DNA from: Rhizophagus irregularis
Taxonomy: Eukaryota
Reading direction: 5' to 3'
DNA: 64,000 bases
NCBI RefSeq assembly: GCF_026210795.1
Contig: NC_089434.1
Span: 2,108,001 to 2,172,000 of the forward strand
The position numbers were made by a program, and so were the translations under genes. The first letter of the stretch is position 1. Every line of letters starts with the position of its first letter. Positions 613 to 41,455 of this stretch are shown here, one piece after another. A model generated the notes under the pieces. The model did no database searches and was not told where the DNA came from. It saw only the letters and a program-made list of their open reading frames with translations.

Positions 613-617
<5 letters not shown>

Positions 618-645: not shown

Positions 646-649
<4 letters not shown>

Positions 650-992: not shown

Positions 993-3139
<2,147 letters not shown>

Positions 3140-3468: not shown

Positions 3469-4296
3469 TTAAATGTAGTTATTTTCTAATATTTAATTAT
3501 AAAAAAATGATTTATTTATTACTATTTGATTTATTTTAATAAAGACAAATCTAATAAAAAAATTTATATAATATATTATATTGTATAAACAGTTTATTTA
3601 TATCTAATTAAATAATGATAAAATTATCCTTTTATAATTGATATTAATGGAATTATAGTTCAAAAAACATTTAGATTGTTTTGATAAAATAAATCAAATA
3701 GCAATAAAATTATTTCTTTATAATTAATAAAGAATTATAATTTATTAATTTAGTAATTACCATACCATTCTAAAATTAAACAACCTTTTTTAGTATAAAG
3801 TTGTTTAATTTTAGATACTTTTCTTTTTGTGTAAAAAATCCAAAAGAAATGAAGAAATTGTGCATTTAGAGACTTTATATATAATGTAATACAATGTTGT
3901 ATTTAATAAATAAATCATCATTAATTGATTTTATATGCATACTTGTTTTTTTCATTTTAAAAACTTGCTATACAATATATTGCTATAAAGAAATAAAAGG
4001 CAAAATAAAGCTATTGGTAAAAAAACTATTAGTAAACAAGCTATTAAATAACAACTCATATTCTATTAAATAAAAAAACAGGTTGTTACTTATATCAAGA
4101 AAAATGGAATAGTTAAAGCAGTAAAGTCTTTTAAATTTAATAAAAACATAGTTAATTACTGGGTTAATTCCAATGAAAAGTAGATAAATAAACTAAATTA
4201 ATATAGCAAATAAGTTAGCTTGATTAAAAATATTTTTACTTAAAAATTGAAAAAGAACTCTATAATAATTGGATTATAAAATAAAGAAAATAAAAT

Positions 4297-5322: not shown

Positions 5323-5359
5323 ATAAAAACTAGGTATCACATATACTGGTCAAAAACTA

Positions 5360-6237: not shown

Positions 6238-6610
6238 ATACTGGTCAAAACTAATATATCAGGTAGCAAATATGTATCAGGTATATACCCGATATGTGTA
6301 GTAAAAATGCAGAAAATTGGGTACCCAATAGATGTAAGATATGTGCAAATACACCTACCTGCCAAAAGTATCCAGACAATTCTAAAAAATAACCATTAAA
6401 TCACATTATTTTGATGTTCAGTGATCAGAATTTAATGATTTATAATTCATTAGATTCGTCTAATTGAGATACATCTAACTGCAGTATTTTCAAGTCTGTA
6501 AGTTTAATAGAACAGAAGTTATTGCTGAATGTCTAAAAACAGTAAAATGCAAATAACTTTTAATCCATCAATTCTAGAGACATGAAAATAATAGATACAA
6601 TGTACCTTAA

Positions 6611-10955: not shown

Positions 10956-11068
10956 TTAATAAGATAAATTTAATGAATCATATTTCATTATTCTAAGTTT
11001 AATAGAGAAGAAAACGTTGTGAAATTTGTATTTGCTAAAGTTTTAAAGATAAAAATGAATTACTTTAT

Positions 11069-11822
11069 CCCTTAAACTGTTTTGCGGGCAAATTTGCCCG
11101 CAATTTCTAAATTAGAATAAATGATGCTATAAAAAATTCTTTAATTTTGGCCAGATCGTCACATAATTTTGCAGCCAAATTGATCTACATTCTGGCCATA
11201 AATTGTATGAGTTAGATATACAGTTGATCATTAAAATTGGATTAAAAATTAACCCGCAAAAATAGTATCGGAATTTTTATATAATAAAATTTAAACTTTT
11301 CCTACCATATTTTTTCTCTATTTGAATATTTATTATAACTTTTTATTTTTATTATAAAAATTTTGCATTATAATAAACAAAATAGAGATAAAAAAAATCA
11401 ATTATTATGAATATATAATTAAAATGCATAATAAAATTTTCATTAAGGTTCTATATAAAGTCAAAATCCTACTTTTAAATATCAAAAATCATATTAACAA
11501 AAGTCGTTTCTCATACCAAATTCTACATATTCTATTAAGCTTTTATATAGCTACAATTAATTATCAATGAAATCGTCGAAGTTAAGTGCAAAGTTTTTTA
11601 AAATTTTGTGATTATCTTAAAATACAACTTTTGACCAATGGGTAATTTTCGATTTTCTAAAATATAATTAATAAATGATAATAATTGCTGCACAATATAT
11701 AATTTAAACTATTTTGGAAAAAAATTTTATTAAAATTGCTTTATTTTTCATAAAATTAGATGAGAGCTGAAATTTGATAAAATTACGGGCAAATTTGCCC
11801 GCAATTGCTTACAGTTTAAGGG
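11069..11822. mobile_element. MITE at the foldback centre, CCCTTAAACTG termini, with a palindrome at each end
   Basis: cccttaaactg...gcgggcaaatttgcccgc at the left and cgggcaaatttgcccgc...cagtttaaggg at the right. Confidence 0.65.
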
Positions 11823-12712: not shown

Positions 12713-14593
12713 GAATAAAAAAAAAAACTCTTTCCCGAATACATTTTTTACGAAAATTTCTGCGTAATAATTTTTTTAAAAAATAATCCCCTTTATTAAA
12801 TTTTATTACATAAATATAAAAATGTCTATAGATAAGAGCCGAACACCAAACGAAGAAGCTTTAAACTTCATTTCTAAGTTTAACGAAATTTATTTTCAAA
12901 CTTTTACACACCATTTAAGTTCTTTTGTACAGGATGGTTTCCTCAAGGACTTATTCGAAAAAAACCCCTCAGTACCTAAGGATAAAGCCCAGATACTGAT
13001 AGAGCGGTTTGGCGAAACAGCCAACCCTGCGAACTTCACTTCACAAGCTCAAGCTACGAATATACAACCCACCACCCTTTCGCTAATATTTTCTATAGCG
13101 CTATATGCTGCGTCCAGGTCTTGGGATAATTTTTCAGCCCAATTCTATTGCAATTTTGGCGATACGGGTGATGATAATGATGACGATGATGATGGATCTC
13201 AGAATACTGATGATTATCTGATGGATGAGTCATCTCCGCTAATGCCTGATGAAGATGATCTTATACGCCAAAGATTTATAAAACCACCAAATCCAGTACC
13301 TATCAAGCTTCCATCAATGCCTGATATAGTAATGACCCCTGTTAATCAAACTGTGATACCCGAAAATTCCTGGAAGAAAGATAAACAAAAGGCGCGTGTT
13401 ACAGATGATAAACAAGTTGCGAACCAATCTACAAAGGCAAAACCTGATGTGAAAACATCAGCCAAAAATTCCCAAAAGGGACAGAAATCATCCGAACCAG
13501 AGGCTACACAGATACTGACAGGATACGAAGCTGTCGGAGAGGAGCAAGAGCAAATCCGAGACATTATAGTTTACGATATCCCGTATACCTGGAACCTGCA
13601 GAAAATAATAGCAGAGTTAAAATTTTCAACACAAGTATCAGACTCTTAGAGTCAAGATAGCACTATCCTCATTTGCCCTTCCCCAGTTTAATAAATATTG
13701 GACGACAGACCTGGGAGGTATACCCGTTAGATGGTTCCCTGCAAGTTGGACTTTACGAGAAAGAAAACAACGTGAAAAGTTCCAAGCCGTTATTACGATG
13801 GCTACCTTGTGGATGGACCGTAAACCATGTGAATTTTTGATGAAGTGCGGTGCTAGCTCATTTAAAATCATACAAACAAGTAAAGGAAGGAGGAAACTTG
13901 TGGCCTATTTTGAGAATTGGGAGACCACACTAAGGGCCTTAGATACGCCACAGTTTTTCGTACCTGATGGTAAGGAGTTGAAATGGTGTCGACACTCCAT
14001 TCCTACCTTGAAGAAAGCACAAACCAAACCGAAGGCTAAAAATACACCGAATACGAAAAAGTCAGGTAAGTCTGACAAAAATTTGGAAAGTAAACAGCCT
14101 AAGAAGAAGGATAAACCCACGTCCTCAAAGAAAGTCCCGAAAAATAATAACTAGGAGGAAAAACACCCGAAGAATCAGAAGAAGGCAAAGAATACCTCGA
14201 AGACTAAGGGTGGTAATAAAGATAACAAGATGGTTTTAGCAGAGATTTTAACTTTATTACAGAAACTAGTTTAGCCTACGCTTTAATTAGCGGTTTTATG
14301 AATTTCAGAATTGTATTATTTTTTAGGATAGAATAGGTTTATGTGTATGCACCATAATTTCTTGAAAAGGGGACTTGTCCTTTCCACTTTTTTCCCCCTC
14401 CTTTTTTTTCCCAGTGTGTTCGCCTGGACTTTTATCGGACGTAGTAGTAGTGCAGGTTTTTTATTTTCAAGTAGTTCGGGTCGGCTTTCAGCTCCTCTGG
14501 TAATCGATGGTAGGATTTAGTTGGGTTGTATTACTTCGGAATCATACTCACGTTTATATCCCCTGCCAGCTTCACATAAAATAAATAAATAAA
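12713..14593 (+). mobile_element. ORF1-only non-autonomous retroposon, copy 1
   Basis: 18-bp TSD ACCATATCAAATAAAGTA (12695-12712 / 14594-14611), 3' (TAAA)n tail, near-identical inverted copy at 39571-41455. Confidence 0.9.
12822..14274 (+). pseudogene. LINE ORF1/gag-like nucleic-acid-binding protein (RRM-like segments, acidic tract, Lys-rich tail), frameshifted near 13627
   Basis: RDIIVYDIPYTW.., then the +1 frame QHKYQTLRVKI..GIPVRWFP..KLVAYFENWE runs to LLQKLV*. The TAG at 14152 is CAG in copy 2. Confidence 0.65.
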
Positions 14594-22018: not shown

Positions 22019-25000
22019 TAGAGGTATGCTCTGAATCTGGTCAATCCGGATATCCGGTCATCCATCCGAAATTTGACCGGATTCGGATTGATCCGGATGA
22101 TTCATTGGATTGACCGGATGGATCATTGGATATCCGGTCAATACTTGCTCACCAATTTGACCAGATGGTTAACCGGATATCTGAATAATCCGGTCAATCC
22201 AGTTTTTTCTACTTAATACTTTTTATTAATATTAATTAACAATTAGAATTTTATAATAATAAACATAGTATTTATTTTTACATTATTACAAATGATTTTT
22301 AACAAATTAGTTGACACAATATTTATAAAAAGTTTAAGATTTAGAAGTCCAAGAAGGTGTCTCCCTAAAAAAAAGAAGCAAAAGGAACGTTAATTACGTT
22401 CCTAAAAATAAAAAAACAAAAATACATTTCCCCCAACTTACCTTTATAACCCATGCTGAAATCCAGGTCCAAGAGGCGTCCTCCTAAAGAATGAAGCAAA
22501 AGGAACGTTAGTTATGTTCCTAAAGACAAAAAAAAAAGATAAAAACCCTTCCCCAACTTACTTTAATAGCCTAAGCCGAAATCCAGGTCCAGGAAGGGCG
22601 TCACCTAAAGAAAAGAAACAAAAGGAACGTTAATTACGTTCCCAAAGACAAAAAAAACTCAAAAATAACCTCCCCAACTTACCTTTATGAAATCCAAATC
22701 CGGGAGGGCGTCTCCTAAAGAAAAGAAGCAAAAGGAACGTTAATGACGTTCCTAAAGACAAAAAAAAAGATAAAACACCCTCCCAACTTACTTTAATAGC
22801 CCAAGCTGAAATCCAGGTCCAGGAAGGGCGTCACCTAAAGAAAAGAAGCAAAAGGAACGTTAATTACGTTCCCAAAGACAAAAAAAACTCAAAAATAACC
22901 TCCCCAACTTACCTTTATGAAATCCAAATCTGGGAGGACGTCACCTAAAAAAAAGAAGCAAAAGAAACGTTAATTACGTTCCCAAAGACAAAAAAAACTC
23001 AAAAATAATCTCCCCAACTTACCTTTATGAAATCCAAATCCGGGAGGACGTCTCCTAAAGAAAAGAAGCAAAAGGAACGTTAATGATGTTTCTAAAGACA
23101 AAAAAAAAAGATAAAACACCTTCCCAACTTACTTTAATAGCCCAAGCCAAAATCCAGGTCCAGGAAGGGCGTCACCTAAAAAAAAGAAGCAAAAGGAACA
23201 TTAATTATGTTCCCAAAGACAAAAAAAACTCAAAAATAACCTCCCCAACTTACCTTTATGAAATCCAAATCCGGGAGGGCGTCTCCTAAAGAAAAGAAGC
23301 AAAAGGAACGTTAATGACGTTCCTAAAGACAAAAAAAGATAAAACACCCTCCCCAACTTACTTTAATAGCCCAAGCCGAAATCCAGGTTAGGAATGGCAT
23401 CACCTAAAGAAAAGAAGCAAAAGGAACGTTAGTTACGTTCTCAAAGACAAAAAAAACCCAAAAATAACCTCCCCAACTTACTTTAATAGCCCAAGCCGAA
23501 ATCCAGGTTAGGAAGGACGTCACCTAAAGAAAAGAAGCAAAAGGAACGTTAATGACGTTCCTAAAAAAAAAATAAGCAAAACACCCTCCCTCAACTTACT
23601 TTAATAGCCCAAGCCGAAATCCAGATCCAGGAAGGGCGTCACCTAAAGAAAAGAAGCAAAAGGAACGTTAATTACGTTCCCAAAGACAAAAAAAAACCCA
23701 AAAATAACCTCTCCAACTTACTTTAATAGCCCAAGCTGAAATCCAGATTAGGAATGGCGTCACCTAAAGAAAAGAAGCAAAAGGAACGTTAATGACGTTC
23801 CTAAAGATAAAAAAAAAACAAAAATTAACTTCCCCAACTTACTTTAATAGCCCAAGCCGAAATCAAGGTCCAGGAAGGCGTCACCTAAAGAAAAGAAGCA
23901 AAAGGAACGTTAATTACGTTCCCAAAGACAAAAAAAACTCAAAAATAACCTCCCCAACTTACTTTAATAGCCCAAGCCGAAATCCAGGTTAGGAAGGGCG
24001 TCACCTAAAGGAAAGAAGCAAAAGGAACGTTAATGACGTTCCTAAAGACAAAAAAAAAAATAAAACACCCTCCCCAACTTACTTTAATAGCCCAAGCCAA
24101 AATCCAAATCCAGGAAGGGCGTCACTTAAAGAAAAGAAGCAAAAGGAACGTTAATGACGTTCCTAAAAAAAAAATAAGCAAAACACCCTCCCTCAACTTA
24201 CTTTAATAGCCCAAGTCGAAATCCAGATCCAGGAAGGGCGTCACCTAAAGAAAAGAAGCAAAAGGAACGTTAATTACGTTCCCAAAGATAAAAAAAAACT
24301 CAAAAATAACCTCCCCAACTTACTTTAATAGCCCAAGCCGAAATCCAGGTTAGGAAGGGCGTCACCTAAAGAAAAGAAGCAAAAGGAACGTTAATGACGT
24401 TCCTAAAGACAAAAAAAAAATAAAAATTAATTTCCCCAACTTACTTTAATAGCCCAAACTGAAATCCAGGTCTAGGAAGGGCGTCACCTAAAGAAAAAAA
24501 GCAAAAGGAACATTAATGACGTTCCCAAAGACAAAAAAAAACCCAAAAATACCCTCCCCCAACTTACCTTTATGAAATCCAAATCCGGGAGGGCGTCTCC
24601 TAAAGAAAAAAAGCAAAAGGAACATTAATGACGTTCCCAAAGACAAACAAAAAATCAAAATTACCCTCCCCCAACTTACCTTTATAGCCCAAGCCGAAAT
24701 TGAGTTCCAGGCAGGCGTCCCCTAAAGAAATGAAGTAAAGGAACGTTTAGTGACATTTCCAAGACAAAAGAAAAAGAAATTTACACTTACTTTTCGAAAT
24801 TCAAGCCGTCCAAGTCGTTCCGAAGTCCAAGTTCAAGTCCATCCTAAAGAAAAAAAGGTGTTTTTTTTTTAAAAAAAAACATTTATGTTAAAAAAAAAAA
24901 AAAAAGTTATGAATTTGACCAGATTATCTGATCAATCCGGTCAATCCGGTCATCCGTGTAACATCTGATCAATCCGATGTTATCCAACGGATCCATCCGG

Positions 25001-25094
25001 ATTATCCGCAATCCGTTCATTCTTAATCCGGATGATCCGTTTTTTGATCGGATCGGATGACGGATTGAACAGATTTCACCAGAGCACACCTCTA
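22019..25094. mobile_element. hAT-like non-autonomous element carrying a tandem array
   Basis: TIR TAGAGGTATGCTCTG / CAGAGCACACCTCTA. Dense subterminal ATCCGG/CCGGAT motifs at 22040-22200 and 24915-25080. No TSD match. Confidence 0.75.
22350..24850 (-). repeat. Tandem array of about 21 units of 110-121 bp, each resembling a micro-exon plus a GT-AG intron on the minus strand
   Basis: Unit gtcacctaaagaaaagaagcaaaaggaacgttaat(g/t)acgttcc.aaagac(a)n...ccccaacttactttaatagcccaagccgaaatccaggtccaggaagggc. Confidence 0.9.
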
Positions 25095-25222
25095 GTCCTT
25101 ATAAAAAAAAATGCAAGGATATCTGATGATAAGGTTACATGGTCATCAGCCCTTGTTGTTGAAAAATACAAAAAAAAAATATAAATCTGCAAGTACAAAA
25201 TGATTACTCCTGTTGAGTATAT

Positions 25223-25627
25223 TCATACCACTCCCAGTCCCCAAGGATCGCCTCCCCATTTTTGTTCACTTAATGCATACTCTATGGTTTCCCTTTCCTG
25301 GGGGTCTACGACCATCCCATTCCTAAGCATTTTCCCCATAATATAAAGCTGATTCTTGGTAAGGCGGTCTATCCATCTTTTATAGAAGTCGTTTACATCT
25401 TCAAACGTTATCCAGTCAATTTCCCTCTTTATATAATGCTTTCCGAGAGCTCGGATTTTTCAGTACACATCCCCGATCATAATGGCATAATTTTTCCACC
25501 TCTTATATGCCTCTCAACAAACCTCCTGCCACCACACACTATCTACTTTACTTGCTGCAATAAGGTCAGTATCCGGGATCTTTGCGACAATGCGTTCGAC
25601 TATTTCTACTGGTAATCGGTCCAACAT
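25223..25627 (-). pseudogene. Small F-box-like protein (two internal TGA)
   Basis: Manual translation MLDRLPVEIVERIVAKIPDTDLIAASKVDSVWWQEV fits the F-box pattern L..LP.EI...I...L...DL.....V...W. Confidence 0.55.
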
Positions 25628-25720
25628 GATGTTATGTTACTTATACTATAGCTATCTTCAATTACTGTATGCCCATTACACATGGATAAAAAATATAAAC
25701 TAAATTCATACAGGAGCCAC

Positions 25721-26191
25721 TTATGCAAGAAGTTCTGCTAAGGTTTTCTCAGCCTCATTCATAGTGACAGCTCGCTTTGGGGGACCTGTTGATGAGTCCT
25801 TAGTTACATTATAATACAACTCGAAGAGAGCTTCAAGTTTGTCTAGAAGAGCTTGTTTATTCTTGTATGATTCATGAATCTTTGCTATCTTAGCAGTATA
25901 TGCTGCATTATCTGGGAAGAGTTTTCTGGCCATGAACTTCACATATGATACAGGAGACTTTGCTGTCTGGATTCTCTTGATATACTTCACATGATCCTGG
26001 ACAAGGTAGCTGGTTTTGCTAAACCCAGATACTAATGCGACTACTATAGTGTCTTTCAATGCACGGATAATCTTGAGGACAGTTTCATCAGAGACAATGG
26101 TGAACTGATTGCGTGTTGCATCATAAATAACTTCATCACTAATGCTGTCAGTGCTGTTAATAATGCTTGCTAATTTGGTATATGTTGACAT
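25721..26191 (-). CDS. Hypothetical 156-aa protein of the pPolB module
   Basis: Intact ORF with ATG, co-oriented and directly downstream of the polymerase. No motif recognised. Confidence 0.6.
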   Translation of the reverse strand: MSTYTKLASIINSTDSISDEVIYDATRNQFTIVSDETVLKIIRALKDTIVVALVSGFSKTSYLVQDHVKYIKRIQTAKSPVSYVKFMARKLFPDNAAYTAKIAKIHESYKNKQALLDKLEALFELYYNVTKDSSTGPPKRAVTMNEAEKTLAELLA

Positions 26192-26233
26192 GATTCCTTA
26201 TACTTTTTTGTACTTTGTAATAAATAGGAATCT

Positions 26234-28124
26234 TCAAATTGACTTTACATTCAAGCAAGAAAAAATATATATACCTGCTGTAAACTCAACCACATGGCAG
26301 TATCCTGCGGTTTCAAACTTGAGAGCTTTCAATGCTTTGGATGCATTTTCTGGACAAGTGATAAGTGTAGGACTACTCGGCTGTTCCTCTAGAATAAATC
26401 CATCTGTATGGATGCGTCGTACTTTATCCTTATATGGTTCTAATAACTCTGAAGTCATTTTCCGTCCATGTGCTAATAAAAATGGAGCGATCCTAGGATA
26501 CTCACCCTTAAAGGGACTACCTGGGTTTGTGAATTGGAATCGCCACTGGTCAGATCCTACTGGTACGATGGAGTCAAGTGTGTGGCCTTCCAGAAACTTG
26601 AATGGATCTGTTTGATCTGTGGTGAGTGTCTTGTAATTGCGTTTCCTCTGGCAGAGTGCTCCCCATAGTGTATTGAGAACTCTCTTTGCAACATGACCGG
26701 CCACGCCACCCTGGTTCTTTACATTGAAGAGAAAGTGGACATTCTCACCAAATATTACAGTCCCAGGAATTCTTGCTTCTCTGTCATATATCAAGGCATT
26801 TGGCTTTCCATCCTGGATTAACTGTATATCGAGACCAAGTTTCTTTGCTCGTTGTAAGTCAATGAATGTATAGACTCCCCTCTTATTCTGTCGGAAGAGA
26901 ATGTCATTACCACTTACCTTAACATGAAATAATCCATACAAGGCATAACCTCTGTGGTCTACAAAGTCTTTGAGTATTTGAAACTTACCTTGTCGGATTG
27001 GATGGAAAGTTTGCATTCGATTGCTGAATACTTGGATACAAACTTGTTACGTCGTATTGTCTTCCATAGCCCTTCCATTCATTATCTGCCCAGATAAGCC
27101 CTCCCATCATAGCATCATTTATCCACTCTGCTTCTATAGGGTCAAGAGGATCATTGGCTGGAACCCCTACACTAAACCGTTCAAAAAGCCAGAGAGCAGT
27201 TTTCTTGTATGACCAGTTGTGGTAAGATAAGTCGATTCCTAGACCGAACTTCTTTGTAGCCTGTAGGAAGGAATCCCGCTCTTCATGTATGGATCCTCTG
27301 GTATGTTTCCTCAAGTGTTTCATATATTCCAGTTTTACGATTCTTCTCAATAGGGATGAAGGAGTAACTATCAGAGTTTTTACCTTTCTGAAACTGTCCA
27401 ACTGTAAGAGACTTAACTGTCTTACCATTGTATATTGTTACTACATTATTAACCCCATCTTTACGATAAACAAAGGGAGACTTTTGTTTTCTATCTAATT
27501 TACTAGGGTGGAGTCTTCCGGGATTCAGTGCAAGAGAGTAGTGGCCTTCAGACAGGATGAGGGTTCGCGTCTATCAGACTTGCTCTTGGAAATTCAAGTG
27601 GAATCCCCTACAATATTAAGTGCAAGGCTTCCTGCAAGTTGTTCAACCTTATCCATATATGAGACTGGAACTGGAGCATCACGATTGAGACCTAATGCCT
27701 TTTTGATATATTCAGGCTTTTTTATAGTCTCGGGTATTTTAGAAAATATACCATAGATATGCTTCAGACATTCATACAGGCAATCATTTAGCTCCCCATT
27801 GCATCCTCCTACAACCGGTGGAGCATCTCTCACATAAATTATGAATCGTTCAAAGTAATCAGGATCTGCATTATCTGGTAGTTGTGCTTTATCATAATGG
27901 TCCAAGAGTGAGAAGAGGCTGGCTGGTTGGTTTCCTGATGTCCATCCACCAGGTTTCCAGTTTTTATAGGGGAGCAGGATCTGAAATTTATGAGTTGGAT
28001 ACCGGGATTGGAGTTGCTGTCCAAGTCTGGCAAAAGCTCCTCTAGAAAATCTTGTGCCTGAATACTGTAGTTCTTTGATATCTGTTCTTGTAGGTAAAGC
28101 ACGTGCAATTTTTGAATAGGCCAT
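26234..28124 (-). pseudogene. Protein-primed family B DNA polymerase, frameshifted
   Basis: MMGG, motif A YDVTSLYPS, motif B KRVLNTLWGAL, motif C RIHTDGF. N-terminal NDCLYECL..EGHYSL Cys/His pair. Split over ORFs 27594-28124, 26985-27428 and 26234-27016. Confidence 0.85.
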
Positions 28125-28207
28125 TTGATATAACTATGAATTGTATTCAATTGTAACATAGGTTTTTTATATAAAAAATATAAGATAACTAAGAGGCGCT
28201 TATCTTA

Positions 28208-31022
28208 TTAAAAGGAGTCAATCATATCACAGGCCTCATCAATATCCAACTCATCTACAAATCCATTAGCAGCCTCCCACTGGCGTTCCATATCAGTCTT
28301 TGGACGCTCCTCTGGGATTTCTCGTGCCTTACCTTTATTCATCTTCATAGTTTCATAACCGGAGGTGGTAGGGATAATCTCGGCATCACGATCCTCCTTG
28401 TATATTCTTATTATATCTGCGAGTTCTTTACGGCTAGGTGTTTTAGGTAAGTTCCCATTATATTCGATCCAGTCCTTGAAGCGGTCTACTACCTCCCTAA
28501 GGTAGTACTGGTACTTGTCTTCAATACGCATTGTGGGACATTCCTCTACTTCAAACGCGAGTATTTCCCAGTCATAGTCATCTGATTCATCTTGGTACTT
28601 AGCCCATAAATCCTTACCTGTATTGTAGAGATTATTGAAAACCTGGTCCTTTGAATTCTTGACCCATGGCTTACGATCCCATCGGTGTCTTTCTTGCCAA
28701 GCCCAGTGTGCTCGAGTACCTTCCTTTGGTTCAGGTCCCGGTCGACTTCTAGTTCTGTGTCAGGTTCTGGGATAGGTTGCTCTTTGAGAGTCAGTTCTAC
28801 TACAGGTTCTGTAGAAGATTTGGAATCTGTGAGGGATTCGGATTTTGCAGAAGATTCTGCAGGAGACTCGGGTTGTTGTTCATGAGCTGGGTTTGTGGTT
28901 ATAGGATCTGAGTCAGATAACAAGTCATCTAAGACGTCGTAGTCATCTGGCTCAGGGGCAGACGGTTTTTTAGGAACTAGATCCTCAGCAGACAGCTCCT
29001 CTTCTTGGTTGGGTTCCTTGTCAGATAGATAACAGTCCGAGAAGTTATCTATAGGTTCATCAGTATCTGACTCTATAGGAGCTGGAGATTCCTCAGGAAT
29101 AGGATCCTCATTGATGACAGGTGCGGGTTTTACCTTCAAGCAATCGGGCTTAGGTGGTACTGGTGGTGGAGTCTTTTTGAAAACTGGTTGCTCTTCAGTA
29201 GGTTTTTCTTCGACAGGTTTCTCAACAACTAGCTCCACTTCCTCTTGATCTACCTGTACATCCTGTATGTCTTGTGTCTCCTGGATTACTCTACTAAAAT
29301 TCTTTGCGATTTTTGCTTTATCTAGTATGTAATAGTTTATTCAAGCACCTGAATGTCTTGGGCGAGTTTTAGGAATGAATTGCTTAATCTCCATACCAAA
29401 CTTATTATCACTAAGTGTTTTGTTTTCACCCTTCTCACTGCACCAATTCTGGTAAGTGCTATAGAAATTTGTACAAGGGATTTCAAGTGTATCACAATTG
29501 TCGGGCCACATTATTTCAAGGTAATATTGTATGAAACGCTGGGGATTTGGAATACTTGCTTCGATTAGCTCCTGTTTCATTTGAGTATCAGGAATAGATC
29601 GGGGATTGAAGATAGTTAAGTCTCGGCTAAGTAGATAGGACATGAAGGAACTGGCTGTATCTGGATTTTCTAATATTTTTACTAGAGAACTGAAGTATTC
29701 TCGATTGCCCTTATATTTGGCTGATACATTGAGAGCATAACAGAAGTTTGATTTCATTGGTTGATCTACAAGGATTCTGATTGGTAAATCAAATTTCATA
29801 AGAACAACTTCGTAACGCCAATCTTGGAGTTTCACAAAAAGCTTTAAAAGAAATGATCATCTCTTCATATTTCAACCTTGCTCACGTGAATATAAAAGGA
29901 TTTTTTGTAAGAAAAAGACCCAAGTTTCATTAATATTTTGGTCTTTAAAAGGTATAAAACCAATATACTGACTTTGTGTAACATGTTCGTAATTCTAAAG
30001 TTCTTCCTAGTAAAACTTGGTGGAATAAAGAGATCATAGAGATAATAATGCATATAATGGTAGAGTAACAGCAGAAATATGTTCTAGTGAAATTTCGCGT
30101 CAAACGGATAGGTCTTTAATGTAGCTTAATATGACACATCATGATTTACTATATGTGCTATTCTATACGCTATATAAATAGTTCATGTAACCAATGATTA
30201 TTTAAGAAACTCTGTTATGCTTACATTGAGGGCTACAAATCTTTCATCTCCCATTTCTATGCGGATTGGCATAGCATGATTACTTAGGATCATGTAGCCA
30301 GCAAAGTCATCAATAACCTTCACATCTATCCCCTTTTCCTCAATAGAGATGTAAGGCTCAGTGATTAAGCTCTTAAGTCGATTATTTGCTTCATGCCATT
30401 CCTTGCCTGTCATATCACATTCATTGAGGATAATGAGTTTTTTGGCACGAACAGCTGCATTGAACCTTCCCATTACATCTTCAAGACGGGTAGTGGAGAG
30501 AAAGTTTTCACGACCAAGAATATGTTCTCTGATAAAATCGGTTAAGATATTCTTACCACATCTGGGGGGACTGCGCATAATATTTGCTGTACCGGGGTTT
30601 TTGTCTGGATTTTGAACCAGTAATGCGAGCCAGTTGAGGATGTATGTGGTTAACTGCTTGTCCTCTGCACACCATACCTCATGAACATGTCGAATGATTG
30701 GATTAACTAGGTTCGGTTTGATGTGCTCAGCGGGTTGAGCCCTGAAACCTAGAAAGAGATTGAAGAATTCAAGATTATACTTTGGTGCATTTGGGGATAA
30801 GGCATGAAATTAACATCTGCTTGAGATCTGCAGCAAACTCGAAGTATATGCTTCCATTATAAGCCTTCTTTTTTCTGATCCACATGCCGGACTTCGTGGT
30901 GATGAAAGCCACATAAGCTGAGATTGCTGAATTGACGCTTTCTTTTGTGTGTGTACCTATAGAAGGTCATCGTAGAAGAAACGGTTGTTGGGGTTAAAGA
31001 TTGCTAGAACTTGGGCAGTCAT
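28208..31022 (-). pseudogene. D5-like SF3 helicase with winged-helix domain and long acidic/Pro-rich C-terminal extension; interrupted by a MITE
   Basis: FNLFLGF.A, Walker A GKN, GRFNA, Walker B LIILNE, LKSLITE..IEEKG, motif C ILSNH..ERF, wHTH FYSTYQNWC..NKFG. ORF 28546-29238 is in frame after the TGA at 29341. Start MTAQV at 31022. Confidence 0.8.
29734..30221. mobile_element. Mutator-like MITE inserted in the helicase
   Basis: 9-bp TSD TACATTGAG (29725-29733 / 30222-30230), TIR AGCATAACAGA. Removing it restores ERFVALNVSAKYKGNREYF. Confidence 0.9.
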
Positions 31023-31239
31023 TTTTTGTTCTATCAAATCAAGTACTAATTTATAGTTACCTAATCTTCAATTGCCGAATATTTTTTCCAAAGATCTGCA
31101 CTCCTACCTGGTTACCCTCCTGTAGTCCTGTAGTCCTGCGGTCCTGCGGTCCTCCGGTCATACCCGGTTATCTTCTAGGGGTAAAAAAAACTATAAACCA
31201 CAAACCTTTACAACTGCTCTAAATCTTCCTTTCCCCTTT

Positions 31240-31689
31240 TCAATCCACATATATCTGAAATCCAAACCGCTCAAGAGCTCCTTTTACTATAGTTAGCTCT
31301 TTTCTAGCATCCGTTAACTCTTTACAAGCCTTTTGATACTCCTTCCATTTAAGCTCATGAAGTTCACGATTTCCAATACCTCCCCCCTCATATGATTGAC
31401 CAAGAGTATCCCCCACTTTTTCCTTCTTTTCTACTGCCCTGTCGTATGCTTCCTCAACTTTCTCATGCTGCTTCCACAACTTGGCTTTACAATAGTTGTA
31501 CCAGAGTCTGTTTATCTTGAGATGCTTTTCGAATTCTTCGACCGGAAGGTTTCTGACCATTTCTGCTACTATGTCCGGGTCATTGAGAGGTGAAGCCTGC
31601 ATTTTGATCCATTTATGGATTCCATAGATGTCTACAAGATCAAGACCAAGGTCTTCGGCAAGAGAAGTGGCTGCGTGTAAGTTCATCAT
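31240..31689 (-). CDS. 149-aa protein with a degenerate F-box-like segment and coiled coil
   Basis: Intact ORF. PLNDPDIVAEMVRNLPVEEFEKHLKINRLW resembles an F-box. Confidence 0.5.
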   Translation of the reverse strand: MMNLHAATSLAEDLGLDLVDIYGIHKWIKMQASPLNDPDIVAEMVRNLPVEEFEKHLKINRLWYNYCKAKLWKQHEKVEEAYDRAVEKKEKVGDTLGQSYEGGGIGNRELHELKWKEYQKACKELTDARKELTIVKGALERFGFQIYVD

Positions 31690-31747
31690 TGTATGTTACT
31701 TATGGTATACCCATTGTTCAATTACTTATTTTTTCTGACGGGGTAGG

Positions 31748-32110
31748 TGGCCATAGTTCAGTGGTCATAGTTCGGCGGTCATAGTTCGGTGTTCCAGGTA
31801 AGTAAATAAAGGGTGGTTATAGTTCGGCAATCATAGTTCAGTGGTCATAGTTCGGTGTCCCAGGTAAGTAGATAAAGGGTGGTCATAGTTTGGTGGCATA
31901 GTTCAGTGTCCCAGGTAAGTAGATAAAGGGTGGTCATAGCTTAAATCGGGTTTTGGAGCCTGAGGGGCTAACTAAGGTGGCCATAGTATTATCATAAGTT
32001 TTTCGAACTGTGGCCAGTACTATGAACGGATATTCTGTCTGATTTTGGCTTTATTCGTGTTTTTATCCACTTTTTAGTAGTCTGGTCATAGTGGTCATAG
32101 TGGTCATAGT
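31748..32110. repeat. Iteron-like GGTCATAG(TTC) repeat cluster
   Basis: More than 10 copies of gg(t/c)catag, three copies of ccaggtaagta.ataaagggtggt, tandem tggtcatag x3 at 32083-32109. Confidence 0.8.
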
Positions 32111-32589
32111 AGTTTTATATATAAGAAAAAATGGAGTAAAAAAAGGAGTTGGAAAGTAGTGTGACCAGCCATGGCCACTGTGGCCATGGTGGTAGTATAT
32201 ATGGGGATGCCTGAGCCCCGTAGGGCCATATAGGTACTGCGACAGGTCGTAGACCTGGAGGTGGGTGGTGCTTGCACCTCCCACATCCAGCCCGACGACA
32301 GTAGTAGTGGTAAGGGGTTTATAATAGTAGCCATTACAGTATCATGCAACAGATTAAAGGACGAGTAGGGTGGTGTTCAGCAGATTCGAAGGCCTTTGGG
32401 TCCCTGAGATATGTCCTTGTGTTTCGGTTGTGGTGTTAAATTGTCCCTGTTAAAGGCGGCAGGGATGGTTACATCATGGCTTAGTGAGGATGATGCAATG
32501 AATGACCTACCTCCATAACCTTCAGTAGAGGGTGCGAAAAGTAGTGGCCACTAAACGTACAATACACTTGTAAAATAATCACCAAATAT

Positions 32590-35500
32590 TTAAAGGCGCA
32601 GATCAAAAAGATTGCTAACACCCTCAGTACTCTTGATGAAACTGTCTCTTGGATGCAAGATACTATCACGCAACACGACTATAGGCTATCTAAGCTTGAA
32701 TCAATGATGAGTTATGATAACCCTGGAGACTCTGATTTGTATCCGCCTCATGATGACAATGATAACCTTTCCTATGGTAATGGATGGGATGATGAACGAA
32801 ACCAGGAAATGAGTTCACGATCCAAGCTTCCTCCCTATACTTCCTCTTCTCTTATGAACACCTCTCCTGATGCTTCCTTCTCAACTCTGGATCCTAGCCC
32901 CGTATTATCTAATAGACATGTCCCCTTACCAGACACCCGACCTAATATTATTGCCCCTGATGCTACTGCTTCCCGTCTACAATTGGAAATTTCTAATGTT
33001 ACTAGTGTACATAAAAATCTTTCTGCCCAACTTGGTTCGATTATGGAAAAATTGGACTCCTTCTCTCCCCCTAACCCTTCCCCTTCTAATGATTGAACAC
33101 CAATTTATATTGGGTGCTACACAGGGATTTCACCCCCTAACAGTGCGATACTTAATCATAATAATTACAATAATCATTCCTTTTCTCCTTTCCCTTTTAT
33201 TAATTTTGGACAAATTAATGTTAATGGTTTGTGTTCTCCTGTTCGACAGTTGCATTTGTTAAACTATTTCCTACACTCTTCATTTGGTGTTTTATCCTTA
33301 AATGATACTCGTCTTACTTCATCTAATGCTAAATTTATTTTTCAAAATGATCACTCCCAATATGATTTTAAGTCCTATTGGGCCCCTTCCCCTTCTAGTT
33401 CACGACCTCATGATGGTGTTGGTCTTTTACTCCGCCATCCTTTACATAAACATGTTCAGAAGATCGATCCTTGGAAAGGTCGTCTTTTAAAATTAGATCT
33501 TTTTTTTCATCAGACAAAAATTTCTTTTATTTCTGTTTATATTCCTCCTTATCATTCTATTCATTACAAAGAACGTGATGCTATTTTTGCACAACTTAAT
33601 TTGTGGCTTGATAAAGCCCGTTCTAATAATTATCATGTCATCATCCTTGATGACTTTAATGCAGATGAACTTTCACATTCACATCTTCCTCAACATCATT
33701 TGAAATTCTTGCGATCACTCTCTTCTCGATATTTTATGGATCATCAATCCCATATTTCTTCAATTTCAGGTTCTAGTTCTACCTTTTACCTGACCACCGT
33801 GTACTTATAATAGCCTTTGACTTTAGTTCTTGTTTTGCTACTTTAGCCAAAGCTAGATTAAAACAGAAAAGCGAACTACGCACCATTTTTCTCTACAAAA
33901 ATTTAAAGGAAGATATTTGGGATTCATTTTCCAAAGAAGTAAATTCACGCCTTGAGGTTTATATGACCACATATCATCCTTCCATATCTGCTCTTCTTTT
34001 GGACAAACTTTGGCACGCTCTTAAACGTTCTATTCTTGGAGGCGCCATTGATTCTTTACCATTTCAACATGTATCCAATACTCATCACCATAAATATTCT
34101 TCTGAGCTTACGATGCTTATTGCTATCAACAAATTTTTGGATCGATTATTGTTTAAATTGACCACGTCTTGGACTAGTCGCCCCGCTCAAATTTCACAAA
34201 TGATTAATTCTTTACCTACACAATTGACTCTTTTGAAATCTCTTTTAACAGATTATACTATACCGATTTATAGTACAACACCAAATTTTTGTGTTCACAA
34301 AAGGCTTTGGTCTCTGCTTATCTTTCCACGCAATTTCATCAACATCGTGTGGATTCCATTGAATATTATACTGCTCTTAGAGATGAACATTTCTCTACAT
34401 CGCCGGGTTCTTTTATTTCTTCAGCTCTGTCAGTGGAACATCGCTCTATCGTTCTTGATAGAGTTTTGGTTGTAATTGACTCCAAACCCACATTACTTAC
34501 TGATCCTTCAGATATCAAACAAGCTGCCGTCAAACATTTCCAATCAGTTGTTACTCCTCCTTTTGTTCAGCATTCTTCCACAGATGAATTTCCTCCACGT
34601 TGGCAAAGAGCATATACTCCTATTTTTGACATTGACTCATCTTTATATAACTCGGTCATGTCTCCTATTCTGGAAGAAGAATGGAAGAACACTATCCAGT
34701 CTATGCCTAACAAAGCCTCTGGTCCTTCCAAGATCTCTTATGAGATGCTCAAACATTTAACTGGAGAAGCTTTCAATTTGTCCCTTATATTAGCTAATGC
34801 CTGCTTCACTTATGGAGATATTTCTGCTGATTGGCGTGAAGCGCTTGTTTATCCCATTCTGAAGCCTCATGAATTTGACGCCCAATTAAAGAATATGCGT
34901 CCTATTACTCTGTTAGAAACTGTACGGAAATGTGTGGTTAAGGTCGTTACAACTCGACTTTCAAAAATCCTAGCTGATAACCAAGTGCTTCAAGGTGGTA
35001 ATTTTGCTGGATTACCAGGCGGTTCCTATTAAGATGCTTGATGCTATTATTCATCAACGCCGCTTTGACAAAACTGATGACCAAGAGTTATGGATTGTTT
35101 CTCAAGACATTTCTAAGGCCTTTGATTCGATTGATCTGAATATGCTTAAATTGGCTTTAATCCGTCTTCATATCCCGCCTTTGTTGATCAAATTTATCAT
35201 TAATCTCTTCACTAGACGTAATAATAAAATTATTACCCATCATGGCAATACTTCTGGATATAGAGTTAGAATTGGTATTGACCAAGGTGAAATAATTTCT
35301 CCGCTATTATGGGTGATTTATTTAGATCCTTTGCTTACAACACTTAATCGAGAAGCTTGTGATCCCTTTATTTTAAAATCCTCTGCATTATTGGATTACT
35401 CTCCGCTTGATTATGAACAACATAATCTTCCTGTCTCTCATATTACATTTATGGTCATCTAAACGAGGAATTGAAGATTGCCTTTCCATTACTGCTGAAT

Positions 35501-38500
35501 TTTATACTCTAAATAATACTCAAGCAAATTCAGCAAAATATATCCTTCTTTCTTCTGAACAATTTTCTCAAACTATAGTGTTTGATCTTTTCCCATTTCC
35601 CCTAATTCCAATCCGTACCTTACTTTAAAAGCATTAGCTTTATCCACGTCTTTTCGTTTTTTAGGTGTTTGGTTTTGTCTTTTGGCCTCTTCTCATTTTG
35701 TTCATAATCAAACCACTTCCATGGTCAAAGACATGGCTGCTTTACTCAGTCCTAAGAAACTTTTAGCCCAACACGTGGCTTACCTTTATAATGTTGTCTT
35801 ACTTCCGAGGCTAGAATTTCGTCTACAAACCACATTATTTGCTGAATCTACCATTAATCGTATGGTTTCTCCAATGCTTTCCCTTATTCGACAGTAGGCT
35901 GGCTTTGCTTCAATCACTCCTCTCCCCGCGCTTTTCACATTATTGCCGTTCTCAATTGAACAAGCGTTTAGCCGATTTTTATCATCTCATGTGGCTTCAT
36001 GGCAAAAAATTTTTTCTCATCCTTTATATAAGGTTTTTGCCAATTATATGATTACTTATCTCCAAGGTTTCTTGGACTGTGATGCCTGTCCTTCTACTAT
36101 CAATTTGGAACCATGGTCACATACCTTTTCCCTGCGAACACATTCTTTGTTCAATTCTTTATTGTTCTTTTCTCGATTGAATATCACGTGGTCTTTATTG
36201 TTCCAACCTCCGAGAAAAGATCTATGTCCAGTGATTCCACTCCAGAATATTTTACCAAAAGACTTATTTATTTCCATGAAAAATGTTCGGAAGAATTTTT
36301 GCACTCGATATCTTGCTCAATTGATTACACCGTGTGGCTCTCGACTTCTCTCATGGAAAGATTTACACTTTCTTAAACGGGTTTCGAACAAAGGATCTGT
36401 GCCTGCTTGGTTTAATTATTTATTTAATCTTTTAAATCAATTATTATTTGAATAAACACATCTATTAAATCTTAATTTCTCAATTAATTCAAAATAAATT
36501 AAATTTTGTTGAGATTCAATTAAAGAAATAAGTTGATTCGTTTCATCATATAAATTTCGAAAATCACAATTGATTAGAATTCCTATTTCTCATACTGTAG
36601 CTTATATTTCTTTTATAGATATTAGTCGTAATTATTTGTTTAACCCTCAATGGGCTATTTCTTTTAATCGTAATACTAACTCTTTCCTAGTTGGCCGTGT
36701 GATTATCACCTATCCTGCTCCGCGAAATGAAGCTCTTATTTCACATTGGATTGCGTCATCTGCTGATGACTTACTTTCTGAGTTTACTGCATGCCGTGGT
36801 TGTGCCTCTGCTATCTCCCACTCCTCTACCTCTAAGACGCTTATTAAACAATGTCCCTCTAAAGAATGTTTTTCTTATGTTCCTTTATCATCTTTGATCC
36901 GTTACCCTACGAAACCTCGTACTTATATACATGCAGATACTCGTTCAGTTTCACTTTCTGCCTCGTTAGGCTTTGCCAAATCTCTTTTATTATTTCATCT
37001 TTTTGCGCCGGCTTGATTAGTCCTTAAGAACAATCAAGTGTCTAGGATTTCTGATGTCCATCTTCCGTCTTCAGTGTCTACACTTTATATTGATGGTTCT
37101 TTCTTTCCTCCTTCTAGTCATCCGACATCTTCGATGGCTTTTGCATGAACTGCTATAGATTCTGATGGATTTATTCTTGAATTCTTTTATAATACCATTT
37201 CTTCTAATTTTCCTTCTGCATTACATTCAGAAGTTTATGCTTTATTGCATGGACTGGACTCCTCCCCCGGAATTCTAAGATTACTGTCGCCACTGATTGT
37301 GCCCAATTAATTTCTTTATGGTCTTCATACGTGGATGCTCCTTTTATTCCTAGAATGCTTAAAGAATCCAATCACCTTTTGTGGTCCTCCGTACGAGCCA
37401 TTGTCTCACAAAAGAATCTGGAGATTACTTTGATCAAGGTTCCTGCTCATGCTGATGACCCTTTGAATAATCATGTGGATGCATTAGCTAAAGCTGCTCA
37501 TTCAGACTCGCGTCTCTCTTCTCAGTCGTTGTCCGAACTTTTCACACCTTGCATTTTACAATTTAATTCCTTATCTGTGGATATGAATATTATGAATATC
37601 CAGCAATTTATTAGAGATATTTTTGACGCTAAGAGTCTATTAACTCTTGCTGTTTTACCAAGATTTAATTCCAATTCTTTTATCTTGGCTATTGATTGGA
37701 CTTGTACCAAGTTTTGTTTTAACAACAATAAGCAAATTTTCTCCCATCGGAATGGCCATTCTGAATTTTGTGCATTCCAAATCAAAATACTATTAGATAT
37801 GCTTCCGATGCTTACAACTCTTCAGCGACGGAAGCCTCATCTCTATGATCCAAGTTGGCTTTGCCCTCAATGCAACTTCTTCCCCGAGACTTTAGACCAC
37901 TTGTGGACTTGTCCTTATATCTTACCCGAATTTAGTCCTTTCACCACCTTTAAAACACTTTTATTGGATCTTCGATCTACTTATCTTGATAAATTCATTT
38001 CCGTGACATCTTTAAAACCTTTACCAGATTTTTTTGCTGCTGAATTCACGGCTATTGACTGTTGGCTTTGTGACCCTCCTTCGTCCTCTTGCCTGAGACT
38101 CGCACGTGGACTTATACCGATATCCTTAACTGGATTTCTTGGAAATTATTTTTCTCCATCCACCATATGGTCTATTTTAGATACACCTTTGCACAACTTT
38201 CATTTTGACCTTTATGTTCAAATCTGGTTATGCCGTTCCATTTTCTTTCATCATTGGGAATCAGCTCAAGGCATCACTAAAAAGATGAAAGGACTTATAC
38301 CGATATCCTTAACTGGATTTCTTGGAAATTATTTTTCTCCATCCACCATATGGTCTATTTTAGATACACCTTTGCACAACTTTCATTTTGACCTTTATGT
38401 TCAAATCTGGTTATGCCGTTCCATTTTCTTTCATCATTGGGAATCAGCTCAAGGCATCACTAAAAAGATAAAATCGTCCACTTTTGGACCTTCTATCATT

Positions 38501-38943
38501 TCTCACCCTTCTCCTAATATCCCTCCTGTCTCTTTGACATCTTCCTTGGCGACAGTTTCCTTGGATTCCTGGGTTTCTTGGGTTTCCTCTTCTATAATCC
38601 GTGGTGGGTCTTGGCTCTCGCACTTGGATTTTTAACGCCGCTTAACAGTTCAGCCTCTACTTAGGATTTCTTTTAGGTAACAGATTGGATCTTAGGGCAT
38701 GCTGGATAGTTGACTCACTCTGGCCTTTGGGTAAAGTTGGGGTATGCGTATTCTGTAATAGTTTAGTTTTTCTTTACTTAATTTTATTTCGTTTAAATTT
38801 CTTTACTTATATGAATCGTGAAGCTAGTTCTTTTTATTTTTTATGTTTATTTTTTATATTTTGTTTGTAATATTGTTCGATTTGCTTATTGTACTTTCGT
38901 TAAAAATTTATAATAAAAGATAAAGTCATAAGACTGTTTGCTC
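32590..38943 (+). mobile_element. 5'-truncated LINE: ORF1 end, then ORF2 with APE endonuclease, RT, RNase H and CCHC; degenerate
   Basis: 15-bp TSD ATAATCACCAAATAT (32575-32589 / 38944-38958). Motifs NVNG, HDGVG, DDFNAD, KASGPS, RPITLLE, QDISKAFD, GIDQGEIISP, YIDGS, KVPAHAD..N..VD.LAK, CPQC..ETLDHLWTC. Confidence 0.92.
38108..38470 (+). repeat. In-frame 183-bp tandem duplication (61 aa) in LINE ORF2
   Basis: GLIPISLTG...GITKK occurs twice, with units starting at 38108 and 38291. Confidence 0.95.
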
Positions 38944-39570: not shown

Positions 39571-41455
39571 TTATTTATTTATTTATTTTATGCGAAGCAG
39601 GCAGGGGATATAACAAAGGGTATGATTCCGAAGTAATACAACCTGAATAGATCCTACCATCGATTTCCAGAGGAGCCGGAAGCCAACCCTAACTACTTGA
39701 AAATAAAAGACCTGTACCACTACCACGTCCGATAAAGGTCCAGGCAAACACACTGGGTAAAAAAAGGAGGGGGAAAGAAAGTGGAGAGGACAAGTCCTCT
39801 TTTCAAGAAATTCAGTACAAACGCATAAATCTATTCTATCCTAAAAAATAATACAATTCTGAAAGTCGTAAAACCGCTAATAAAAGTGTAGGCTAAACTA
39901 GTTTCTGTAATAAAGTTAAAATCTCTGCTAAAACCACCATGTTATCTTTATTACCACCCTTTTTCTTCGAGAAATTCTTTGCCTTCTTCTGAGTTTTCGG
40001 GTGTTTCTCCTCCTGGTTATTATTTTTCGGGACTTTCTTCGAGGATGTAGGTTTATCCTTCTTCTTAGGCTGATTACTTTCCAAATTCTTATCAGACTTA
40101 CCTGATTTTTTCAGATTCGGTGTATTTTTAGCCTTTGGTTTATTTTGTGCTTTCTTCAAGGTAGGAATGGAGTGTCAACACCATTTCAACTCCTTACCAT
40201 CAGGTACGAAAAACTGTGGCGTATCTAAGGCCCTTAGTGTGGTCTCCCAATTCTCGAAATAGGCCACAAGTTTCCTCCTTCCTTTACTTGTTTGAATTAC
40301 TTTAAATGAGCTAGCACCGCACTTCATTAAAAATTCACATGGTTTACGGTCCATCCACAAGGTAGCCATCGTAATAATGGCTTGGAACTTTTCACGTTGT
40401 TTTCTTTCTCGTAAAGTCCAACTTGCAGGGAACCATCTAACGGGTATACCTCCCAGGTCTGTCGTCCAATATTTATTAAACTGGGGAAGGGCAAATGAGG
40501 ATAGTGCTATCTTGACTCTAAGAGTCTGATACTTGTGTTGAAAATTTTAACTCTGCTATTATTTTCTGCAGGTTCCAGGTATACGGGATATCGTAAACTA
40601 TAATGTCTCGGATTTGCTCTTGCTCCTCTCCGATAGCTTCGTATCCTGTCAGTATCTGTGTAGCCTCTGGTTCGGATGATTTCTGTCCCTTTTGGGAATT
40701 TTTGGCTGATGTTTTCACATCAGGTTTTGCCTTTGTAGATTGGTTCGCAACTTGTTTATCATCTGTAACACGCGCCTTTTGTTTATCTTTCTTCCGGGAA
40801 TTTTCGGGTATTACAGTTTGATTAACAGGGGGCATTACTATATCAGGCATTGATGGAAGCTTGATAGGTACTGGATTTGGTGGCATTTGAAATCCTTGGC
40901 GTAAAAGTTCATCTACATCGGGCTCAAGCGGATATGACTCATCCATCAGATAATCATCAGTATTCTGAGATCCATCATCATCGTCGTCATCATCATCACC
41001 TGTATCGCCAAAATTGAGATAGAATTGGGTAGAAAAATTATCCCAAGACTTGGACATAGCATATAGCGCTATAGAAAATATTAGCGAAAGGGTGGTGGGT
41101 TGCATATTCGTAGCTTGAGCTTGTGAAGTGAAGTTCGCAGGGTTGGCTGTCTCACCAAACCTCTGTATCAGTAACTGGGCTTTATCCTTAGGTACTGAGG
41201 GGTTTTTTTCAAATAAGTCCTTGAGGAAACCGTCCTGTACAAATGAACTTAAGTGATATGTGCAAGTTTGAAAATATATTTTGTTAAACTTAGAAACGAA
41301 GTCTAAAGCTTCTTCATTTGATGTTCGGCTCTTATCCATAGACATTTTTTATATTTATGTAATAAAATTTAATAAAGGGGATTATTTTTTAAAAAAAATT
41401 ATTACGCAGAAATTTTCGTAAAAAATGTATTCGGGAAAGAGTTCAATTAGAATTC
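39571..41455 (-). mobile_element. ORF1-only non-autonomous retroposon, copy 2
   Basis: 18-bp TSD CCTAACTCATCTAACCAT (39553-39570 / 41456-41473), (TAAA)n tail, ORFs 40518-41345, 40175-40369 and 39893-40159 match copy 1. Confidence 0.9.

Follow-up and report, generated by a model that had tools for sequence, protein, structure and literature searches.

A decayed polymerase-helicase module in Rhizophagus irregularis and the probable Polinton family to which it belongs

The 64,000-nucleotide stretch of Rhizophagus irregularis analyzed here (assembly GCF_026210795.1, contig NC_089434.1, forward-strand positions 2,108,001 to 2,172,000; hereafter the window) contains a block of five decayed genes: an F-box-like gene, a superfamily 3 (SF3) helicase, a family B DNA polymerase that uses a protein primer (pPolB), a conserved open reading frame (ORF) without an assigned family, and a second F-box-like gene. 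The block probably comes from a Polinton/Maverick with many copies in arbuscular mycorrhizal fungi; it would be the half that serves replication, cut after the last F-box gene. Its full form was likely similar to a soil metagenome locus, L007, with an A32 ATPase, a coiled-coil protein, a predicted Gag, a retropepsin and a chromodomain integrase (rve-chromo). In L007 and a second, divergent locus, L023, the Gag-like gene and the retropepsin seem to occupy the slot of the virus capsid genes, an arrangement that appears new. The window copy is dead, a decayed fragment of a known class and by itself an ordinary fossil; it is the family that matters.

A decayed replication module of a multi-copy family

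All five genes lie on the minus strand (Table 1). An earlier note, made from the letters of the window alone, had described them as co-oriented, intronless, richer in GC than their surroundings, bordered by a repeat cluster at one end and decayed, and all of these points were confirmed. Pfam, profile and fold matches also agreed with the gene identities it had named. Intact relatives are single ORFs (617-649 aa for pPolB), so that 'intronless' holds for the family. The GC content of the module is 40.4%, compared with 23.8-28.4% in three flanking stretches, and CpG stands at 0.49 of expectation, compared with 0.75-0.83 in the flanks. Because gene order is conserved in the relatives, as the note had expected of further copies, the five-gene set is not due to chance; the note's proposal of a self-replicating element was also right. 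Outside 25.1-31.8 kb, 450 ORFs of related loci gave no match in the window, nor was a homologue of the ATPase, integrase, Gag, protease or capsid detected in it with ten module proteins plus eight candidate capsid/protease ORFs as queries.

Searched with a profile built from the relatives' F-box genes, the upstream F-box-like ORF (31689-31240) came top of 1,269 window segments (E 2.7e-7); it had no Pfam F-box match and no homologue among the fetched loci. The helicase is devoid of a primase domain, carries a winged helix together with a long Pro/acidic tail, and matches along the R. irregularis protein P0017. Its gene contains stops, has lost 121 bp at 30819/30820 and is interrupted by a 488-bp miniature inverted-repeat transposable element (MITE). 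The tail is 96% identical to P0365 and the ATPase domain just 31%; one tail common to two helicase types points to possible module swapping among R. irregularis Polintons. The polymerase has a predicted terminal protein (TP)-vOTU-palm make-up in which the exonuclease is not intact. Its reading frame is broken by indels near 27565, 27285 and 26999, and the final codons of other copies are absent (loose ends at 26291). Homologues of the conserved ORF (26191-25721), for which no family match was found, sit after pPolB in many relatives and are fused to it in seven NCBI gene models. The last F-box-like gene has homologues in the metagenome loci L001, L002 and L030.

The pPolB fragment of the window retrieved 158 proteins among 938 candidates. 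The top matches were R. irregularis proteins at 93-96% identity, followed by Rhizophagus clarus, Diversispora epigaea and metagenome proteins down to about 40%. Contigs of four runs cover 30 of 30 bins (1,060 to 11,698 pieces per run), which indicates a divergent multi-copy family, and merged gene models of R. irregularis and R. clarus preserve the helicase-pPolB and pPolB-orf158 order. The modelled pPolB of an intact relative (pLDDT 89) matched mavirus pPolB over the full length (E 8.6e-42, TM 0.69), the next full-length matches being at E 1e-12 or weaker; phi29 polymerase was matched at E 7.6e-11. Cys114, His194, Asp356 and Asp572 are kept in at least 95% of 41 pPolB sequences. The polymerase type is widespread, since its profile yields 2,186 clusters at 50% identity; the profile had no sequence match among solved structures. 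In viral contigs it found three distant loci among 44 candidates, and queries with the window fragment, Gag, integrase and ATPase gave none; in prokaryote genomes one weak 54-residue match was obtained from 37 candidates. In a midpoint-rooted FastTree phylogeny of 80 rows, among which were the first 45 representatives after length filtering, the fungal and soil pPolBs form their own clade (support 94-99). The R. irregularis sequences group with L007 (support 100) within a clade holding L023, L037 and L020 (97-100).

Accessory genes differ between relatives at the slot behind pPolB. A TBP-like gene directly follows it at L029:1644-2402 and L043:4104-4430 (Pfam TBP E 1.7e-6 and 7.3e-6); these two pPolBs are 42-44% identical to the query, and L043 branches deep in the tree, which was built without L029. 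Two close relatives have an IQ-motif-like ORF (weak Pfam) in the same place (L016:984-1478, L045:420-893).

The downstream half of the element in relatives and its probable counterpart in R. irregularis

Seventy-one metagenome loci were available, of which L001-L050 are the 50 closer ones. Eight of these 50 run at least 1.9 kb past pPolB: six reach the A32 ATPase, and two are pPolB fragments amid other transposons. The order in L007 is pPolB, orf158, a 2-Cys-adaptor-like gene, a Zn/winged-helix gene, F-box, ATPase (minus strand), coiled coil, Gag-like, retropepsin, rve-chromo integrase (minus strand) and DUF5679. In L023, helicase and pPolB are followed by Zn/winged-helix, F-box, ATPase and coiled coil, and then by the Gag-like gene and the first part of a protease frame. 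L030 goes on from the same F-box gene as that of the window to the next module gene. Protease and integrase were found in L007, the Gag-like gene in both L007 and L023, and the ATPase Walker A motif is intact in both. A contig size of 13,806 bp is common to Gag and integrase rows and one of 13,337 bp to Gag and pPolB rows, pointing to a full element size of about 13-15 kb.

Neither a candidate ORF nor a gap for a double-jelly-roll major capsid or penton was found in L007 510-10890 or L023 1074-10599, spans that fall short of the element ends. Pfam scans of the L007, L023 and L037 ORFs gave no Adenain/Ulp1-type maturation protease. The L001-L050 elements contain no unassigned ORF of at least 250 aa except a TBP-like one (L029) and a host-transposon-like one (L044). 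The note was right that the module lacks a jelly-roll capsid, and the search of its close relatives turned up none.

The Zn/winged-helix ORF of L023 (5659-6252) also matches the C-terminal region of the helicase in L021 and L023, suggesting that a DNA-binding domain was duplicated. In both L007 and L023 the coiled-coil gene has a proline-rich tail, after which its last 16-19 bases are shared with the beginning of Gag (L007:7215-7230, L023:9283-9301).

The Gag-like protein was assigned to Retrotrans_gag in the ESM Atlas (0.94; 17 of 30 matches) and weakly in Pfam (E 0.03), with a PEG10 capsid domain at E 0.14. Foldseek comparison of its model placed Ty1 capsid C-terminal domains at ranks 1-6 (E 0.2-0.6), with Arc and RSV capsid domains also among the matches. 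The protease matched three aspartyl-protease Pfams (E 4e-6 to 4e-5) and has the catalytic Asp, and we assign it as a retropepsin. We call the upstream protein Gag because several weak matches concord and a retropepsin is adjacent. In both L007 and L023 an A9 run lies at the Gag end, and the protease is in the -1 frame, opening a few codons before the Gag stop; no methionine occurs in the 50 codons seen of the L023 protease frame. Identity between L007 and L023 is 47% for Gag (capsid part), 51% for pPolB and 49-66% for the ATPase; the divergence of Gag is close to that of the other two, as expected for a long-resident gene. A gene model of Entrophospora sp. SA101 (P0272) fuses ATPase, Gag and protease on one strand, and a related integrase is also present. 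The sequenced spans contain no reverse transcriptase, RNase H or long terminal repeats (LTRs), and 25 bp separate protease and integrase in L007. Since intergenic gaps are at most 132 bp in L007 and 229 bp in L023, there is no room for a reverse transcriptase, LTRs or a jelly-roll capsid. By extension, the window's own subfamily may encode the Gag-protease pair, and the Gag may form particles. Two short Gag tblastn matches at another position (L006, L041) were left out of the Gag counts.

The L007 integrase retrieved 319 proteins; R. irregularis accounts for about 49 of the 120 listed, at 58-68% identity and with many isoforms. This integrase is mavirus- and Polinton-like virus-like, being 33-39% identical over its length to those of the distant loci L051, L054, L073 and L074. 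Among 27 R. irregularis pPolB rows, 16 have a listed integrase on the same contig, and in 10 of the 16 the two are 5-15 accessions apart (9 of the 10 at 5-8). The 96% (P0001), 94% and 91% matches to the window lie 5, 5 and 7 accessions from an integrase. Near pairs in all-gene annotations are 8 apart on a 25-kb contig and 7 apart on a 99-kb contig, and the spacing of 8 is what the L030 order plus the L007 order predicts. Judged from this tight, repeated spacing, the family is an integrase-bearing Polinton of which the window copy is truncated, and its reading as an integrase-less family fails.

The absence of integrase and ATPase reported in the note consequently stands for the window, with no homologues, and falls for the family, as both follow the same pPolB-orf158-F-box block in L007. 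The note had added that full-length copies with integrase, ATPase and jelly-roll capsid would indicate an ordinary Polinton; the relatives have the first two, and in place of the third a Gag-like gene with a retropepsin. Its preferred idea of an undescribed plasmid- or transpoviron-like family is not upheld: the family has an integrase and an SF3 (not SF1) helicase, scans of the element and its relatives found no RNA polymerase ORF, and capsid-less Polintons of R. irregularis are already published, being listed in PMC4028283 Table S1.

Competing readings, known systems and a possible mechanism

Several observations weigh against the assignment to a Gag-bearing Polinton. Gag, protease and ATPase are seen in relatives and not in R. 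irregularis itself, and a Gag search over proteins of 593-2,000 aa yielded one among 6,465 candidates, from Entrophospora; Polinton-1_GI of R. irregularis is listed without ATPase (PMC4028283 Table S1). Each Gag match is weak: the model has a pLDDT of 43, every Foldseek E is at least 0.2, ESM Atlas feature sharing is 126 of 256, and the L023 Gag halves give no Gag Pfam match. The slip site is not followed by a stimulatory hairpin (z 0.2 and -0.5). The pPolB-integrase adjacency is one of accession numbers, not of the DNA of a full R. irregularis copy; 6 of the 16 testable rows are 22-3,041 accessions apart, 11 of the 27 have no listed integrase on their contig and the GBC series has 0 of 6 near a listed one. 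The rows were picked partly for integrase-bearing contigs, which makes chance estimates of the adjacency too favourable, and the contig of one pair is inferred. No termini, terminal inverted repeats (TIRs) or target duplications of the element were found, and none of the contigs spans both ends. Finally, L001 departs from the window at 25173, and with no following gene visible in its remaining 238 bp a short subfamily may exist.

That departure is one argument for a self-standing five-gene replicon without integrase and capsid, or a short non-autonomous subfamily, with a natural end at about 25170. L001, at 86% nucleotide identity, leaves the window at the same place, many R. irregularis pPolB rows have no nearby integrase, and the left bins have a high contig depth in each of the four runs (although depth is not a copy number). 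We regard this reading as improbable: the closest named homologues are those lying 5, 5 and 7 accessions from an integrase, L030 runs on past the same F-box gene, L001 and the window differ beyond 25173 without any common end sequence, and a foreign TIR element abuts the break. More serious, although still unlikely, is a truncated Polinton, a capsid-less transposon, in which the gag-protease pair is a passenger, either an LTR retrotransposon remnant or an accessory acting in integration targeting or Ty1 p22-like interference. Ty1 capsid-derived restriction factors are among the top fold matches, three Gag types lack a visible CCHC knuckle, and an A32 pump is not known to act with a Gag lattice. 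Retrotransposons with Gag-like ORFs do insert into endogenous mavirus-like elements (EMALEs), as PMC8547959 describes. A passenger is difficult to reconcile with the lack of room for reverse transcriptase, RNase H and LTRs in L007 and L023, with a gag-protease pair that is placed and framed alike in elements with 51% identity between their pPolBs, with clusters of 120 and 11 near-identical members in which many proteins are full-length, and with the intact Walker A of both ATPases.

An ordinary capsid-bearing Polinton or virophage, its jelly-roll capsid genes lying in unseen parts or being too divergent, has very little probability in our estimate. It draws on distant loci (26-31% pPolB identity) that carry a helicase, an rve integrase and an A32 ATPase with pPolB, and on the virophage contig L074, where Sputnik-type major and minor capsid matches accompany a mavirus-type pPolB, helicase and rve integrase. 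L007 moreover has an open 3' end and does not include the helicase end, and a 2026 preprint interprets fungal A32 ATPases as viruses (bioRxiv 10.64898/2026.06.19.733378). Against it, the 50 closer loci leave only the L029 and L044 ORFs noted above, the longest contigs with these proteins (13.3-15.5 kb) are nearly filled by known genes, and neither Glomus element has a capsid or penton (PMC4028283). Large ORFs of L051, L054 and L073 considered as capsid candidates had no capsid profile match, and a capsid was confirmed in L074 only.

Of the Polinton/Maverick features, pPolB is present in the window, and rve integrase and A32 ATPase occur in the family and are absent from the window copy. The mavirus-type replication module is found as a compact TP-vOTU-palm pPolB, a separate SF3 helicase and an rve integrase. 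Mavirus pPolB is described in PMC11161782 as terminal protein, vOTU protease, palm and remnant exonuclease, with a separate SF3 helicase; mavirus and EMALEs also share the rve integrase (PMC8547959) and A32 ATPase. They differ in having virophage major and minor capsid proteins and a cysteine protease, whereas the fungal family has a Gag-like gene and a retropepsin, and a fungal host, and is not known to depend on giant viruses. As is predicted for the fungal family, Ty3/Gypsy-type LTR retrotransposons encode a helical, capsid-like domain and, behind it in another frame, a retropepsin. The fungal family differs in lacking reverse transcriptase, RNase H, LTRs and a CCHC knuckle, and in its integrase, which is Polinton-type and on the opposite strand. 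Bidnaviruses have a parvovirus-like capsid, a single-stranded genome and no integrase. They are nevertheless a precedent, combining a Polinton pPolB with an unrelated capsid (PMC11161782).

Two R. irregularis (as Glomus intraradices) elements, Polinton-1_GI/P_Gi1.1 (11,954 bp) and P_Gi1.2 (11,019 bp), were tabulated without capsid, penton or cysteine protease, with an ATPase in P_Gi1.2 (Krupovic 2014, PMC4028283 Table S1). They resemble the present family in host, in size and in the absent capsid; the passages seen on them mention neither F-box genes nor a mavirus-type pPolB, and no Gag or retropepsin. Further papers report that Mavericks are expanded in Glomerales (PMC11952901), that R. irregularis is rich in D5-like helicases (PMC11296320), and that Rhizophagus has A32 ATPases (bioRxiv 10.64898/2026.06.19.733378). 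A literature search, with the 2006-2007 original descriptions, Repbase and bioRxiv supplements beyond its reach, found no report of Gag or retropepsin in Polintons. No Gag-bearing Polinton appears in the portions seen of PMC3671162, PMC4409740, PMC11075540, PMC5751038, PMC6431247, PMC10120064, PMC8547959 and 10.1101/2025.06.16.659975.

In the mechanism we propose for such a Polinton, excised or copied linear DNA would be replicated by the mavirus-type pPolB, primed from its own N-terminal terminal-protein domain, which its vOTU protease would release. Unwinding would fall to the SF3 helicase, with the iterated motifs 5' of its gene as its probable loading site, and the chromodomain integrase would place the product in chromatin; two different flanks are observed at one left end in L021 and L023. 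The ancestor's jelly-roll capsid and penton and its cysteine protease appear to have been lost, with a captured retrotransposon gag-protease pair in their stead. The frame layout observed in two elements makes it likely that Gag and a minor Gag-protease arise by a predicted -1 slip at the A9 run. Gag would most likely form a shell or nucleoprotein around TP-capped DNA and integrase, its assembly could help movement between nuclei of the coenocytic hypha, and the F-box-like proteins may redirect host ubiquitin ligases. Taken as a whole, it is a tentative idea, which we would sooner doubt than adopt, that Glomeromycotan Polintons are hybrids: protein-primed linear double-stranded DNA elements with Gag and retropepsin, made via -1 frameshifting, for jelly-roll capsid and cysteine protease, whose DNA is packaged into Gag-type particles together with integrase and perhaps with the A32 ATPase.

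Fungal Polintons have long stood as a case of a missing capsid (PMC7805220), and in the divergent members studied here the Gag-like gene and retropepsin fill the morphogenesis slot. If Gag is the capsid, jelly-roll-capsid DNA viruses and reverse-transcribing elements would be joined in one genome, comparable to the bidnaviruses, and DNA would have a vehicle for moving among nuclei and strains of mycorrhizal fungi. With Gag-type particles this would be an agent resembling a DNA virus, whose capsid has a retroviral fold and which does without reverse transcription, and the absence of a capsid in fungal Polintons would be explained. Even without particles, these Mavericks belong to the mavirus-type replication group. 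The family further accounts for many gene models of R. irregularis that bear misleading names ('chromobox protein', 'poxvirus D5').

Ends, flanks and inserted elements

The non-coding region upstream of the module (Table 1) has two 7-mers occurring eight times and two occurring seven times, against a maximum of four in 200 shuffles, and 51-66-bp tandem repeats at 31746-31939, the repeat cluster of the earlier note. Comparable iterated motifs lie 5' of the helicase in L021 and L023 (eight and six times), and the region is likely a subterminal or origin region. L021 and L023 have a common left boundary with differing flanks. A search for AGTAGT-type termini gave no clear end, and module contigs of the four runs had no common start or end among the loose ends listed.

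Table 1. Features of the module and its immediate surroundings (window coordinates)
Feature	Coordinates	Strand	Basis
Non-autonomous TIR element, outside the module	22020..25093	.	14-bp TIRs, 13 matching; 121-bp tandem array
Break point	25094..25173	.	Similarity to L001 stops at 25173
F-box-like gene, two stops, last before the break	25223..25627	-	Pfam F-box E 7.6e-4; profile E 6.1e-5
Conserved ORF, 157 aa, intact	25721..26191	-	Matches in 17 of 74 loci
pPolB, mavirus-type, frameshifted over several frames	28124 to about 26291	-	Fold, catalytic motifs, relatives
SF3/D5-like helicase pseudogene	about 28208..31022	-	DUF5906 E 7.9e-20; Pox_D5 E 2.9e-6
MITE within the helicase gene	29734..30221	.	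488 bp, 11-bp TIRs, 9-bp target duplication at 29725 and 30222
F-box-like ORF, 150 aa, intact	31240..31689	-	Profile from relatives' F-box genes
Non-coding upstream region, iterated motifs in both orientations	31700..32560	-	7-mer counts compared with shuffles
Decayed LINE-like retrotransposon, outside the module	32545..38635	+	Presumed endonuclease/reverse-transcriptase-like ORFs, by eye; junction approximate

The TIR element adjoining the truncated module end has GGATC-rich subterminal repeats and 20.5 copies of a 121-bp unit. This array was rejected as part of the module, being enclosed by its own TIRs. By eye the element has no matching target duplication, consistent with a one-sided deletion. 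Between it and the module, 25105-25156 is a single unit of a 53-bp repeat, which other contigs carry in tandem and at high depth. The MITE, which we take to be Mutator-like from the length of its duplication, is passed over by contigs jumping 497 bp at its position in three of four runs. The endonuclease and reverse-transcriptase labels of the long interspersed nuclear element (LINE)-like retrotransposon on the other side are presumptive, from motifs read by eye. A 1.5-kb inverted repeat (12818-14352/39815-41349) was rejected as a giant TIR, a LINE ORF1-like protein being present in both arms; the two inverted ORF1-like copies (12726-14593 and 39574-41443) are 94% identical over 1.5 kb and lie 25 kb apart. 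The remaining window consists mostly of decayed DNA transposons and LINEs, and a host gene with introns, glutathione reductase-like by eye, is located at 993-2756.

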